Sequence record: DRR723986_3005
Length of the DNA: 20,000 nucleotides
Reading direction: 5' to 3' (one strand)
Shown here: piece by piece, positions 1 to 20,000 of the stretch
Layout of the letters: each line of letters begins with the position of its first letter
How positions within the stretch are numbered: position 1 is the stretch's first letter
Position numbers and translations under genes: made by a program
Notes under the pieces: generated by a model
The model's database searches: none
Seen by the model: only the letters and a program-made list of their open reading frames with translations
What the model was told of the DNA's origin: nothing

Positions 1-1243
1 CTGCTTCCACGGCAAAGTCAGGCTTTGACTTTCGGCCAAAAGCCCCACCCAGCATGGTGGCCTCAACGTATATCTCTTCTGGTTTCTTGCCAACAAAGGC
101 GGCCACAGTATTTTGTACTGATTGTGGATCTTGGCAGCACACCCACATTTTCAAATCATCGCCGACCCACTCTGCAGTTGCAGCAGGCGGCTCCATTGGG
201 GCGTGATGTTGATGCGGCACAAAATAATCAGCCTCATAAGATTTGTCAGCCGACGCTAATGCAGCGTCTACATCACCGCGATTGAGAAAATTATTGTCCT
301 TCCCATCGATTGACTTCCAAAGCTCGGCTTCAAACTCAGTGGTGTCATAGCCAGCATTTGGGCCGTCTTCGAATTGCGCCTCTAGCGCCTCGCGGCCCTT
401 CATGGCAGCCCATGTGTTGGTTGCCAAAACCGCAACGCCGCCCAAAGGTTTAAACAGGGCCGGGAAAGCCAGCTCAGGCAGTTCAATAACATCCACAACA
501 CCGCTAACGGCCATGGCCGCTTCCTTATTATAACCCGAAAGCTTGCCGCCAACGACAGGCGGACGGGCGGCAACAGCAAACAACATGTTGTCGCGCATTA
601 CATCCTGCCCAAACTGTGAGCTACCGGTAATGATATCATTCATGTAGATATTGCGAACCGGGCGACCAATATATTGGCGCATATTTTTGGCTTTAAACAT
701 CAAGCTTTCCGGCGCAGGCACTGGCAATTTCGATGCAGCTTCAACAAAGTCAGCAAAGTCTGCGCTGTTGCCCGAAACTGTGTTAATCAACTTATGGTTT
801 TTCACGTCAACGTCTGCGGCAGCAATGCCCCAACGCGTCGCGGCTGCCCGTACTAACATAGCCCGGGCTGAGGCACCTGCCTGCTGAAACGCCGTAAAGA
901 ACATACGAATGGAGGTGGAGCCATCAGTATTCTGGTCACCAAACTTTTTGTCACCGTATGCCGGTAAAAAGTTAATTCTGTCCCAGTCAGCATCCAGCTC
1001 GTCTGCAATAATTTGCGGCAACCCAGTGCGGCTACCCTGCCCCATCTCAACCCGGTGGATGTCTATGTGTACTGTGCCTTCGCCATCAATCATCAAATAA
1101 ACCGAGCTTTTCAAGGCTTCACCGCCGTGCGCATCCGCGATAACTTTTTTGGAAACAACAGGTGCTACAAGCGCCAAACCTGTGACTGCGCCCATTCCCT
1201 GCAATACACCGCGGCGCGATACATTTTTCACATGCACTGTCAT
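1..1243 (-). CDS. Xanthine dehydrogenase family molybdopterin-binding subunit (IorB / isoquinoline 1-oxidoreductase beta-like), 5' part; runs off the window edge
   Basis: Missing from the ORF track because no stop lies in the window. Manual translation from ATG at 1243 gives [26 protein letters not shown]...[25 protein letters not shown]...[10 protein letters not shown]. This has a Tat-like SRRGVL signal and the EMGQG and ELDADW motifs of the IorB family. ATGA overlap with the upstream 2Fe-2S subunit stop. Confidence 0.9.
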
Positions 1244-7197: not shown

Positions 7198-7365
7198 TTT
7201 TTGCCCTCGGTTTTTAATCATGTTCACTGATCAATTCTTTTCATCTTCAACTTAGCTCTCTAGCCACAGGTTTAATATGCGTCTAAACTGTCAAATAACA
7301 GCGTACAATTTCTACATTGTTATGCAAAACTTCAATTTATCAAGAAACCTTTAGGGTGAGAAACC

Positions 7366-7929
7366 ATGAACAGACACATATTCTTCAGCGTTATCCTGAT
7401 CGCTTTTTCGCATGTTGCTATCGCAGGCGATACCCAACCGCTACCTGAGAAGGTTGACGCCACTGGCTTCCAAGATGTTTTGGCAAAAACTGGTGATGTA
7501 TACATCGCAGGACAGCCTTCTGTGGCCGGGCTGGAGCGCATGGCAAAAGACGGCGTAAAAACCGTTGTAAGCTTTCGCACGCCAGGCGAAATGGACAACC
7601 GAAATATCGTGCCATTTGATGAAGCCGCAAAAGCAAAAGAATTGGGCATGAATTATGTCAATATTCCGCTTGGAGGTGACAAGCACCCCTACTCGCCTGA
7701 AGCATTGGCTGAATTTGCTAAAGTGATGAACGACGCCGACGGAAAAACACTTATTCACTGCACGGTCGCATGGCGTGCCAGCCACATGTGGGCAGCATAC
7801 CTGACCAAATATAAGGGCATGGACATCAATGAGGCCGCCGCGCATGGAAGGGCCGCAAACATGGGTACGCAACCGCTTGAAGGCCTGCTTGGCGGCGAGG
7901 TAAAATATAGCGTCGCTGAGAAGCCTTAA
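7366..7929 (+). CDS. Exported DUF442/TIGR01244-type (phosphatase-fold / sulfur transferase-like) protein
   Basis: N-terminal signal peptide (ends ...VAIA), GQP motif, YVNIP and active-loop HCTVAWRA (CX4R). Confidence 0.75.
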   Translation: MNRHIFFSVILIAFSHVAIAGDTQPLPEKVDATGFQDVLAKTGDVYIAGQPSVAGLERMAKDGVKTVVSFRTPGEMDNRNIVPFDEAAKAKELGMNYVNIPLGGDKHPYSPEALAEFAKVMNDADGKTLIHCTVAWRASHMWAAYLTKYKGMDINEAAAHGRAANMGTQPLEGLLGGEVKYSVAEKP

Positions 7930-17788: not shown

Positions 17789-17910
17789 AAATTCCTCCAG
17801 AGCATCAATGAATTGAAAATATTTTCAAAAATAGCCTAGCGGCGAATGGGTGGGCGCACAATCCCAAGCTGAAATGAGAAATAGTAATAACGCAAAGGCG
17901 ATGAGGGAAA

Positions 17911-17926
17911 GTGGTGGGCCCGGAGG
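17911..17926. repeat. 16-bp direct repeat of the tRNA 3' end (distal att core)
   Basis: GTGGTGGGCCCGGAGG is identical to 19970-19985; its reverse complement contains GGGCCCACCA. Confidence 0.9.
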
Positions 17927-17971: not shown

Positions 17972-18021
17972 TGTCAAAACCGCCATTATAATCATTAGAG
18001 AATATCGAACATTGGCTAACC

Positions 18022-19092
18022 CTAAACCAACCTCAATCCGTGAGGCATTAAGGCTTTCTCCTCAATAGGATAAATTTCACGCAGCTCTTCAACTCTCAAG
18101 TACAAAAGCTTAGCCATGTCTTCCATTGAATAATTTAAACTCTGCATATGCACTTTAAATATATTACTGAGGACCGTTGGTTCTTCAGGGGCAAAGTCAA
18201 GCTCTGGCGGTTCCTTGCGGCGATAGCCTGATCTGTTCATTTGAATCCATTGATATCTGGCCTGATTATAACTTATTGCTCCACATGACTGTGCGCAAAC
18301 GAGCAACGCGCCCATTGAAACCCGCCAAACTGGCTTCAATGCGGCAAGCTTCTTCAAGTTGAGATTCCGAGACAGCAAAGGGTATAGCTCATCCGGCGGA
18401 AGCAAAAGTGCACTGGCAAATGCATTCGCTTCATCTTCCATCTCTGGAGAAGGAATTTTATGCATAATGATATGCCCAAGTTCATGCGCAATTGTAAACC
18501 GCTGCCTGTCCGCAGGCTGGGCCTTATTTATAAAAATACAAGGTGGTGTGCCAGGTACATTGGATGTAAATCCATCCACAGCCAAATCGGAAAGATCACT
18601 GAATATCACTATGCACCCTGCCCGCTCGACCAATTCCACCAAGTTCCCTAGAGGCCCACTTGGTTGATGCCACATACGTCTTACAAGTGAGGCTATAGTT
18701 ACAGGTCCGTCATATTGGTCAACGTCAAGATGAGGAAGTTCTAGATCACTGTGCTGGTCTACAGACTGTAACAAACGTCGCACATGCAACAATTGAAGGT
18801 TTATTTTGGCCTCGAGTTTATTTTTCGCTTTCTGAGGAAGAGAAGACTTCTTTCGGTACTGCACGCTAATTGGCAATCCAACCATGTTATCCGGCGCACG
18901 AAATAAGTCCGTTGGATACCCCACGGCTTTGGCCAACTTAACTTCCACGTCCTCAGACGGCTCCAACAACCCGCTCTCATATTTCGAAATATTTGCTTGC
19001 GACAAGCCTGACGCTTTAGACAAATCAGATTGACTCATCCCCCGCGCCTGCCGAGACATTCTCAACAATCCAAAATTGAAAGATTTGGTCAT
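18022..19092 (-). CDS. XRE-family HTH fused to ImmA/IrrE (peptidase M78) zinc metallopeptidase; putative antitoxin/regulator
   Basis: N-terminal HTH (RQARGMSQSDLS..SGLSQANISKYESG); RQRFTIAHELGHIIMH (HExxH) followed by EDEANAFASALLLP. Confidence 0.93.
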   Translation of the reverse strand: MTKSFNFGLLRMSRQARGMSQSDLSKASGLSQANISKYESGLLEPSEDVEVKLAKAVGYPTDLFRAPDNMVGLPISVQYRKKSSLPQKAKNKLEAKINLQLLHVRRLLQSVDQHSDLELPHLDVDQYDGPVTIASLVRRMWHQPSGPLGNLVELVERAGCIVIFSDLSDLAVDGFTSNVPGTPPCIFINKAQPADRQRFTIAHELGHIIMHKIPSPEMEDEANAFASALLLPPDELYPLLSRNLNLKKLAALKPVWRVSMGALLVCAQSCGAISYNQARYQWIQMNRSGYRRKEPPELDFAPEEPTVLSNIFKVHMQSLNYSMEDMAKLLYLRVEELREIYPIEEKALMPHGLRLV

Positions 19093-19094
19093 TC

Positions 19095-19703
19095 CTAGTT
19101 AGATCCTTCACCCTCGTCCTCATCGGCTGCACGCTTGGGTGTAATTACTGGAGGCTTAGAGCCGACTTTTCTTTCACCATCAACTTCGTCTTCAGTGTCA
19201 TTCGGCAACTGCACAACATTGCCTTCATCACTCAACAGACTGAAACACCGAACAATGCTATCCCCGTTTCGTGCAATCACTAACACATCCTGAATCGACG
19301 CTTCAAGCGGCTTCTTCAAAACATATACGACTTCTAATCGGTGAACGGACGGGAGACCAAATAAATCTTGATCCTGATCATGGTAAGCAATCGCTAATTG
19401 GGTCGGAAAATTAGCCGTCAGACCACTTACTCCGCCTTTCTTAAAACGAAACAGGAGCGTACCCTTAACCAAATAACTAACGGTCAAAGGCTCATCCAGA
19501 ACTCTAATCTGCCTATTCGTAGAAAATCTCTCGTGCGCTTCAGTGCGCATAAATTCCCAAACTGCGTTGGCTCTACCTCTAGCAGTCCAATCAGGTTGTT
19601 TCATGTCCAGCCAACGCTGCCAAGACTTCATCACTATCGCGACTAGGTCCTCCCTAACAAACGCTAACTGATCCTTAATTTCATCATCACTGGGTAAACT
19701 CAA
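19095..19703 (-). CDS. Hypothetical protein, putative toxin/effector partner of the HTH-IrrE protein
   Basis: 202-aa ORF with TTG start and a strong AAAGGAG RBS (19711-19717); stop is 2 bp before the next ATG; acidic C-terminal tail. The function call is inferred from context. Confidence 0.75.
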   Translation of the reverse strand: MSLPSDDEIKDQLAFVREDLVAIVMKSWQRWLDMKQPDWTARGRANAVWEFMRTEAHERFSTNRQIRVLDEPLTVSYLVKGTLLFRFKKGGVSGLTANFPTQLAIAYHDQDQDLFGLPSVHRLEVVYVLKKPLEASIQDVLVIARNGDSIVRCFSLLSDEGNVVQLPNDTEDEVDGERKVGSKPPVITPKRAADEDEGEGSN

Positions 19704-19754: not shown

Positions 19755-19783
19755 AGGATAGCAAATCCGATTTGCAAAATCAA
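19755..19783 (-). promoter_or_regulatory. Sigma70-type promoter of the cargo operon with a palindromic operator candidate in the spacer
   Basis: Minus strand reads TTGATT-N17-TATCCT with an extended TGn before the -10. The spacer contains GCAAATC-C-GATTTGC (19761-19775). Confidence 0.6.
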
Positions 19784-19883
19784 CTATATTTTATTCATGA
19801 AATTATTCACGAGGAGCTAAGACAATGTTTCAAAACGTCATTTTTTGGGTACGATTTTATGATAAGGTCTAGCCACAGCCGTT

Positions 19884-19905: not shown

Positions 19906-19944
19906 AAAAAAAAGGCCAATTGGCTAACCTTTGAGGTTAGCCAA
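19906..19944 (-). terminator. Hairpin plus U-tract downstream of the tRNA (possible intrinsic terminator; also made of the arm-like repeat)
   Basis: Perfect 11-bp stem TTGGCTAACCT/AGGTTAGCCAA (19920-19944), followed on the minus strand by TTGGCC and T8. Confidence 0.5.
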
Positions 19945-19970
19945 GCTAAGTCATTGTTTTTAAAGGATTG

Positions 19971-20000
19971 TGGTGGGCCCGGAGGGACTCGAACCCCCGA
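19971..20000 (-). tRNA. tRNA gene, 3' 30 nt only (anticodon outside the window; acceptor stem compatible with tRNA-Ile2/Met CAT, unconfirmed)
   Basis: Reverse complement TCGGGGGTTCGAGTCCCTCCGGGCCCACCA shows a T-arm with GTTCGA loop, the acceptor 3' strand and an encoded CCA. Confidence 0.92.

Follow-up and report, generated by a model that had tools for sequence, protein, structure and literature searches.

The 20,000-nt stretch of DNA analyzed here (sequence record DRR723986_3005; called the window below, in which position 1 is the first letter) carries close to one of its ends two co-oriented genes, open reading frame (ORF) A and ORF B. The first encodes a protein of an unnamed family and the second a helix-turn-helix (HTH) domain fused to a zinc peptidase of the M78 (ImmA/IrrE) type. 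In a first reading of the sequence (the original prediction), the pair was proposed to be a toxin-antitoxin or anti-phage system. The genes and the elements upstream of them are:

19095–19703, minus strand: ORF A, 202 amino acids (aa), TTG start; presumed effector or toxin of an unnamed family (phrog_15813)
18022–19092, minus strand: ORF B, 356 aa, ATG start; RmrA-type protein
19789–19808, minus strand: two direct repeats in tandem, GAATAATT-N4-GAATAAAA, a candidate operator site of the HTH domain of B, with the GAATAWWW copies of the window at 19801–19808 and 19789–19796 (minus strand)
19755–19783, minus strand: promoter-like TTGATT (19778–19783), 17 nt, TATCCT (19755–19760), read from the sequence
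start of the 17-nt promoter spacer: palindrome GATTTTGCAAATC, read from the sequence

The genes are as tightly coupled as had been claimed, the TAG stop codon of A and the ATG of B being separated by 2 nt (19093–19094). They are also, as originally stated, the sole cargo of their cassette, an islet of 2,059 bp (from repeat start to repeat start) which lies between direct repeats and contains no integrase gene. An AAGGAG sequence is located 7 nt before the TTG start of A, and the choice of this start is supported by the fact that the relative P0002 likewise begins with MSLP. Since A has many relatives and B matches HTH, M78 and RmrA profiles, both ORFs are real genes and not chance reading frames.

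The B protein is composed of an HTH domain (residues 10–63; Pfam HTH_3, E = 3.3e-13), a linker containing the Y79-R80 pair, an M78 peptidase (residues 156–263; Peptidase_M78, E = 4.1e-20) and a C-terminal domain ending in LRLV. Fourteen RmrA models of PADLOC matched it, with E-values from 6.8e-59 (residues 9–340) down to 8.9e-33, so that the HTH-IrrE type of partner announced by the original prediction was recovered. B also matched the PADLOC models capP (1.5e-17) and capH (1.1e-7, profile positions 11–96 of 103), its peptidase matched the CapP structure 7t5t at 4e-8, and the NCBIfam model 'spr1629 family repressor/antitoxin' gave an E-value of 1.3e-32, a match that falls short of the cut-off of that model. 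Judging from these profiles, an XRE repressor module of the CapH/ImmR kind and a zinc peptidase of the ImmA/IrrE/CapP kind are joined in B as a single chain.

When the B of the window was aligned with 13 homologs, the residues H203, E204, H207, H211 and E219 were found to be invariant (14/14), which bears out the earlier statement that the HExxH motif and the downstream Glu are intact. The window sequence deviates at 14 of the 91 conserved columns of this small alignment, and the catalytic residues are all kept. No cysteine occurs between HExxH and E219; a CapP-type cysteine switch, as found in many regulators of the CapH/CapP type, was therefore rejected, and B differs from CapP and resembles IrrE in that respect. 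Residue 165 (codon 18598–18600), which is not at the position of the CapP cysteine switch, is Ser in the window and Cys in 13/13 homologs, in an x-C-D motif preceding the peptidase core. The linker contains a block G72-x-P74-x-S76 ... (Y/F)79-R80-(K/R)-(K/R), in which Y/F79 and R80 are present in 14/14 sequences. Both CapP and IrrE are described as peptidases activated by single-stranded DNA (ssDNA) which cut an HTH partner, CapH being cut at F82-R83 (bioRxiv 10.64898/2026.05.16.725639), and the aromatic-Arg pair of B occurs at about the same place, which makes Y/F79-R80 a candidate cleavage site on the basis of its position. The last residues of the B homologs form a conserved motif, L-R-(L/I/V)-V-(K), the C-terminus of the window protein being encoded at 18022–18036.

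The A protein consists of a folded core (residues 1–158) and a disordered tail (160–202) with NVVQLP at 162–167. Neither Pfam nor NCBIfam nor PADLOC, with its RmrT models, yielded a match to it at E ≤ 1, and the match to an existing RmrT model envisaged in the original prediction therefore did not materialize. An exhaustive HMMER search with A retrieved 353 cluster representatives (at 50% identity) at E ≤ 1e-3, including 138 at E ≤ 1e-10, the best relative having an E-value of 1.1e-56. The relatives are mostly about 200 aa long; the best 150 of the 353 representatives range from 103 to 322 aa, and no fused forms were found among these 150. Word-indexed (k-mer) protein searches returned only 2, 11 and 2 relatives (2 for A), almost all of them unnamed, and none that bears on Actinomycetota or Rv2016. 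The PHROGs family phrog_15813, for which neither a function nor an RmrA-type partner is recorded, is the same family as A: its profile matches all 95 aligned members (best E = 1.2e-108) and matches A itself at 1.9e-19. No consistent Pfam family was detected in the 95 aligned members or in 13 longer members, the family profile gave only a chance match to Protein Data Bank (PDB) sequences (E = 0.34), and a single RmrT model (PDLC03941) touched a single one of the 95 members (E = 0.024). DUF5986, which was suggested for A by an Atlas lead (12–14% of the members, scores 0.89–0.91), was dropped since it had no hmmscan support, and the literature search yielded no paper on DUF5986. The Atlas also points from the A family to actinobacterial look-alike clusters, which were taken as a lead only.

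The amino acid sequences of the 95 members show a marked conservation at a limited number of positions. K88 and T101 occur in every member, R86, N98 and Y127 are present in 98–99% of them, and the set conserved at 93% or more comprises W28, R42, A45, R86, K89, N98, Y127, R145 and W152. Position 122 (Arg in A) is K/R in 95% of the members, and acidic residues (D/E) occupy position 50 in 80% and position 124 in 94% of them. The window protein carries Arg at position 152 (codon 19248–19250), where Trp is found in 88 of the 94 other members, including the two closest relatives; one such deviation is the median for the family, and R152 alone is no sign of decay. Within the otherwise variable tail (19155–19220), two short motifs are conserved, NVVxLP and [LV]V[RK]x[KR], the first of which is intact in the window (162–167), and the second of which is degenerate (KVGSK at 179–183). 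The acidic tail noted in the original prediction is a property of the window copy (net charge −7) and not of the family, in which the median charge is 0 and the tail is negative in 40 of the 95 members. It may be speculated that the C-terminus of B and the tail motif of A, which are alike hydrophobic and basic, could dock in the same peptidase groove. The absence of a clear transmembrane helix was confirmed, the maximum Kyte-Doolittle mean over 19 residues being 1.12, and since A is a soluble protein without such a helix, a pore-forming toxin is unlikely. This half of the proposal that A is enzymatic rather than pore-forming thus stood; as to the other half, the predicted fold leans towards nucleases, and the canonical catalytic acidic residues are lacking, as described below.

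The association of the two genes was analyzed in related loci, numbered L001 to L021 here. A pattern scan with an alignment of 11 A sequences, keeping one genome per species, yielded 14 genome loci, which belong to Alpha-, Beta- and Gammaproteobacteria (Pseudomonadota) and to one genome of the Desulfatiglandales (Thermodesulfobacteriota). In all 14, a B homolog (40–54% identical) directly follows an A homolog (29–44% identical over the best segment) on the same strand, with a spacing of −47 to +9 nt. A tblastn search with A added seven plasmid records and one phage record, and in the six plasmid records and the phage examined, an XRE/ImmA-IrrE gene comes directly after A (7/7). The order A then B was therefore found in 21/21 examined loci on chromosomes, on plasmids and in one phage, although these are not all independent (L004 is equal to L005 and L016 to L019, and L012–L014 are near-identical). 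The co-occurrence of homologs on which the original prediction depended thus holds. The pairwise identities of A and B are correlated (r = 0.94, a value reached in 0 of 2000 permutations), and well-supported clades are common to the A and B trees; these matching identities and clades show that A and B have been inherited as one unit, and are not evidence of physical contact.

Several of these loci document the movement of the pair. Near-identical pairs occur in Paraburkholderia gardini, Pararobbsia alpina and Paraburkholderia antibiotica (L012–L014) in different neighborhoods (Gabija and RES genes, AraC and RES genes, and type I restriction-modification (RM) genes, respectively), which points to a recent horizontal spread. 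Two identical pairs (L004 and L005) are located about 365 kb apart on one Xanthomonadales chromosome, one of them beside transposase genes. The pair and its flanking genes are identical in Acinetobacter phage vB_AbaM_ABMM1 (L016) and in a 658-kb 'plasmid' of A. baumannii (L019), and the latter record probably contains prophage vB_AbaM_ABMM1.

The direction in which the pair decays bears on the roles of the two proteins. In L020, A is broken and B intact (1/21), in L021 both are broken (1/21), and an intact A without B was never found (0/21), a pattern which fits the expectation if A is the harmful partner. The opposite assignment, in which the M78 peptidase B would be the toxin, and A an antitoxin or inhibitor blocking the protease with its disordered tail motifs, was considered in this light. 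It has a precedent in the prediction by Makarova et al. (2009) that COG2856 is a toxin (PMC2701414), and A, as an upstream gene whose product has a disordered tail with conserved linear motifs, looks like many antitoxins. However, a toxic B predicts the opposite of the decay pattern observed. RosmerTA, moreover, is defined as a Zn-peptidase antitoxin with a toxin whose function is unknown, and the construct with rmrA deleted is reported, for the tested system, to be not transformable (bioRxiv 10.1101/2022.05.11.491447); NetFlax and later experiments, as presented in PMC10440598, likewise treat the ImmA-protease node as an antitoxin. The reversed assignment is accordingly held to be very improbable.

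The region upstream of A contains a further element common to the family. In the window and in most of the related loci, two GAATAWWW copies 11–12 nt apart are followed by TTGATT, a spacer led by the palindrome, and TATCCT; the TTGATTTTGYAAA sequence of the promoter-like region is also conserved in related loci. In its strict tandem form, the pattern has a single match in the window, where 0.00 are expected; 10 of the 21 related loci also carry it, each time just upstream of A and on the strand of A. The 18 upstream stretches of 150 nt contain 27 copies of GAATAWWW, with at least one copy in 15 of the 18, and 42 copies were counted on both strands of the remaining 377,836 nt, which corresponds to an approximately 90-fold upstream enrichment. 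The second GAATA is invariant in the 13 aligned upstream regions. Three loci (L006, L007 and L009) have a GTTAT-type variant together with B proteins in which the putative recognition helix is likewise different, but since these loci are close relatives, this co-variation counts for little. The fact that a DNA motif has been kept across proteins which are about 30–50% identical suggests a protein-binding site, for which the HTH domain of B would be the obvious candidate binder, and the A-B operon is probably autoregulated.

The genomic surroundings of the pair are those of mobile and defense elements. Known defense systems were found within 5 kb of the pair in 5 of the 14 genome loci, in a scan covering 28 of the 147 neighboring ORFs listed:

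L001: cyclase of CBASS (an anti-phage signaling system based on cyclic oligonucleotides) with a two-transmembrane (2TM) effector
L003: IetAS
L009: type IIG RM
L012: Gabija
L014: type I RM

Integrases or transposases are present in L003, L005, L010, L011, L018 and L021, and RES-domain and RadC genes are also among the neighbors. The distribution of the pair over plasmids (seven records), a phage and att-flanked islets would suit a pure addiction module without any anti-phage role, in which post-segregational killing would secure the maintenance of the islet, plasmid or prophage; selfish maintenance of this kind would also explain the persistence of an islet without an integrase. Against this, there are the known defense systems near five of the 14 genome loci and the protection against phages reported for the tested RosmerTA systems (bioRxiv 10.1101/2022.05.11.491447; PMC10440598). 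We therefore consider addiction alone an unlikely account of the pair, addiction and anti-phage roles not being mutually exclusive.

The same surroundings, together with the profile matches of B, raise the question whether the pair has a regulatory function. B would then be a fused damage-sensing switch of the CapH+CapP or ImmR+ImmA type, and A a non-toxic accessory, such as a DNA-binding co-factor or a sensor, helping to control the neighboring mobile-element or immune genes. The N-terminal part of B does cover the capH profile almost completely, and capP and 7t5t are matched by the peptidase of B. In the Acinetobacter phage, the pair adjoins antirepressor and repressor genes, and in L001 (5606–8358 of an alphaproteobacterial metagenome-assembled genome), the last 4 bp of B are shared with a CBASS cyclase gene, after which comes a gene for a Cap15-type 2TM effector. 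The lack of canonical catalytic acidic residues in A would also be in keeping with an accessory protein. The immune operon directly downstream that characterizes CapH/CapP regulators is, however, present in only 1 of the 21 loci, the genes after B varying from locus to locus; the islet of the window holds nothing else to regulate, and the operator-like repeats lie upstream of A itself. A purely regulatory role is accordingly judged to be improbable.

The pair was compared with previously described systems. It resembles RosmerTA in being a two-gene co-oriented operon, in the full-length RmrA match of B with its HTH and Zn-peptidase domains, and in its mobile or defense context: an RmrA component is present, and the partner gene is adjacent (2-bp gap in the window; 21/21 loci). 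It differs in that A matches no RmrT model of PADLOC-DB 2.0.0, and in that A is soluble with a nuclease-like predicted fold, whereas the RmrT of Gordonia phage Kita is described as depolarizing membranes (PMC10440598). According to the same source, the ImmA-protease node is a hub antitoxin associated with many unrelated toxins, the toxin coming first in 58% of the cases, and COG2856-HTH fusions have been noted beside toxins in phages and prophages (PMC2701414). Six accessions of A or B homologs were absent from two supplementary files of NetFlax, which does not imply that the family is absent from NetFlax.

The CapH+CapP, ImmR+ImmA and DdrO+IrrE pairs share with B the combination of an XRE-HTH repressor and an M78 peptidase with HExxH and a downstream Glu, but in B both parts are fused into one chain, and the unit controlled appears to be its own operon with A. 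The gene order and the sizes of A and B are also similar to those of Rv2016 and Rv2017 of Mycobacterium tuberculosis, which were compared by description only: in the TASmania report (PMC6504116), a 191-aa Rv2016 precedes a 346-aa HTH_3 protein, Rv2017, with the toxin first, and Rv2016 is stated to be toxic in M. smegmatis, weakly rescued by Rv2017, and nearest to the Pfam family HicA_toxin. HicA_toxin was matched neither by A (E ≤ 1) nor by the 95 aligned family members (E ≤ 0.1), a result which neither supports nor refutes the link with Rv2016 suggested in the original prediction. The literature search yielded no study of the A family, nor of the RosmerTA mechanism beyond the papers cited here.

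Structure prediction with Foldseek searches, which the original prediction had recommended for the 202-aa protein, gave a confident model and a trend towards nuclease folds, but no significant match. The AlphaFold2 model of A obtained with the family alignment has a predicted local distance difference test score (pLDDT) of 88.6 and a predicted template modeling score (pTM) of 0.77, and comprises a pair of long helices, then a meander of three strands, a short helix and a further three strands, with the disordered tail following from about residue 160. A second AlphaFold model, built for P0065, a distant member sharing 25% identity with A, reached a pLDDT of 88.2 and shows the same order of elements (alpha-alpha-beta-beta-beta-alpha-beta-beta-beta). 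The best Foldseek E-values were 0.018 (PDB, A model), 0.016 (PDB, P0065 model) and 0.024 (BFVD), and all three lists are headed by restriction-endonuclease-fold proteins. The top rows include SwaI, EcoRV, BglI, PvuII, NaeI, the Hjc resolvase, a tRNA-splicing endonuclease, Cas4/ACE1 and the SPARDA nuclease, together with viral PD-(D/E)XK proteins and human Rep15, and about 30 of the 44 rows of the first PDB list are proteins that we take to be nucleases of the PD-(D/E)xK fold. No RelE/ParE- or HicA-like chain is among the listed rows, and such a fold was rejected for A.

The likeness to PD-(D/E)xK nucleases lies in the predicted alpha-beta-beta-beta-alpha-beta order and in an invariant Lys on the third strand, and the difference lies in the catalytic acidic residues, which are not conserved in the A family. 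Their positions, placed by the order of secondary structure elements and not by a residue-level structural alignment, correspond to T/S74 (95%, at the start of strand 2) and to R86-x-K88 (98% and 100%, on strand 3). Instead of the acidic residues, a basic patch consisting of R42, R44, R86, K88, K89, R122, R145, together with N98, T101 and Y127, is conserved. The predicted models therefore suggest, with modest strength, that A may be a diverged restriction-endonuclease-fold protein with a basic site that looks suited to phosphate binding. A tentative possibility is that nucleic acid is the target of A, which would bind it or cleave it without a metal.

Taken together, the constant pairing, the RmrA-type protein B, the decay pattern and the mobile and defense context lead us to regard the pair, with moderate confidence, as a RosmerTA-type toxin-antitoxin or defense module with A as its effector, the function being predicted. 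As far as the profile searches can tell, A would be an effector family new to RosmerTA-type modules and outside the RmrT models. The HTH domain of B would bind at the promoter, on the tandem GAATAWWW copies and the palindrome, and hold the expression of the operon low, and B would also keep A harmless. A signal of infection or DNA damage, which for the relatives IrrE and CapP is ssDNA, would activate or divert the peptidase of B; repression and neutralization would then lapse, perhaps by cleavage at Y/F79-R80 of B or in the tail motifs of A, and the released A would arrest the cell by acting on nucleic acid. In this scheme we infer the toxicity of A, the direction of control, the signal and the target of A.

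A more specific version of the scheme can be formulated, which we think has only a slender chance of being correct in all its parts. A would represent a new class of restriction-endonuclease-fold effectors with an Arg/Lys/Tyr/Thr/Asn site in place of the metal-binding acidic residues, acting as a metal-free cleaver or clamp of RNA or DNA under proteolytic control and not under control by mere sequestration. B, as a one-chain CapH-CapP-like sensor, would on meeting phage-derived ssDNA cut itself at Y/F79-R80 and/or cut the tail motifs of A (NVVxLP and [LV]V[RK]x[KR]), thereby derepressing the GAATA operator and releasing A.

Several observations weigh against the RosmerTA-type reading. Since A has no RmrT match, a rule-based caller using PADLOC-DB 2.0.0 would not call Rosmer at this locus. 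The Foldseek searches with the models of the A family gave no match at E ≤ 1e-3, with TM-scores of at most 0.40. The presence of T/S74 and R86 at the acidic positions makes a canonical metal-dependent nuclease mechanism unlikely for A, for which a non-catalytic role is possible. R152 and the degenerate second tail motif may mean that the window copy of A is weakened. The promoter scan of the window found no sites at its threshold, TTGATT/TATCCT scoring 8/12, which is below it. Lastly, the pair in L001 may also regulate CBASS, or the island may simply be tightly packed, and a regulator role fits that arrangement equally well.

RosmerTA is counted in many defense surveys, and how these systems sense infection and kill by varied toxins is largely unexplained. 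Since the A family, with at least 353 clusters at 50% identity, is missed by current RmrT models, systems of this kind go uncounted. The confident model of A gives a clear set of invariant residues for mutation, and the operator-like element and the aromatic-Arg site in the linker make the idea of a single-chain repressor-protease switch directly testable. The compact 2-kb islet without an integrase is an example of a minimal defense cargo at a tRNA-type attachment site.

The ends of the islet are marked by the following features:

19965–19985, no strand assigned: direct repeat, tRNA-side copy, with the att-like core GTGGTGGGCCCGGAGG
17906–17926, no strand assigned: direct repeat, distal copy, a displaced 3'-end fragment of the tRNA-like gene
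19971–20000, minus strand: 3' end of a tRNA/tmRNA-like gene (T-arm, 3' strand of the acceptor and CCA), cut by the window edge
19906–19944, minus strand: perfect 10-bp hairpin (TTGGCTAACC / GGTTAGCCAA) with a T-run after the tRNA-like gene, terminator-like, read from the sequence
18012–18021 (minus), 19920–19929 (minus) and 19935–19944 (plus): copies of GGTTAGCCAA, two of which build the hairpin, the third lying directly 3' of the B stop codon

The direct repeats (family D2) are 21 nt long and equal at 19 of 21 positions (90%), with an exact core of 16 nt and a start spacing of 2,059 bp, and the G+C content of the islet is 44.1%, as compared with 49.4% in the remaining window. The islet is best explained as a horizontally acquired, self-contained two-gene module.

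The best Rfam match of 19971–20000 is to positions 345–374 of the tmRNA model, with a score of 16.7 bits (E = 4.6e-4) that falls far short of the gathering score of 47, and ARAGORN called no tRNA or tmRNA at the window edge, where the gene is cut. The G3:U70 pair is the identity pair of alanine tRNA and is carried by tmRNA and tRNA-Ala. Since 19971–20000 has C at the position that corresponds to U70 in the Rfam tmRNA alignment, an ordinary tRNA is favored over tmRNA, and the insertion site of the islet may be an ordinary tRNA gene. An Rfam match to the nematode snoRNA ceN40 (E = 0.72) was dismissed as noise. The flanks of L001–L017 were scanned and showed no tRNA or tmRNA gene, which indicates that the tRNA-type site is particular to the window copy. 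The terminator scan of the window did not list the hairpin at 19906–19944, and two terminator-like sites reported inside ORF B by the promoter and terminator scan were taken to be due to chance. Three copies of the 10-mer GGTTAGCCAA are present in the window, where 0.04 are expected, all just inside the islet ends; they could represent arm-type recombinase sites or be left over from the ends of the element.

The remaining genes of the window are ordinary chromosomal genes, encoding molybdopterin oxidoreductase subunits, YaaA, a major facilitator superfamily transporter, a histidine kinase, an aldehyde dehydrogenase, an arginase-family enzyme, a DAO oxidoreductase and an S10-like peptidase. Two ORFs on opposite strands overlap among them, one at 7332–7649 (minus strand, 105 aa, no Pfam match) and the other at 7366–7929 (plus strand, 187 aa, phosphatase-like domains), the former of which is probably spurious.

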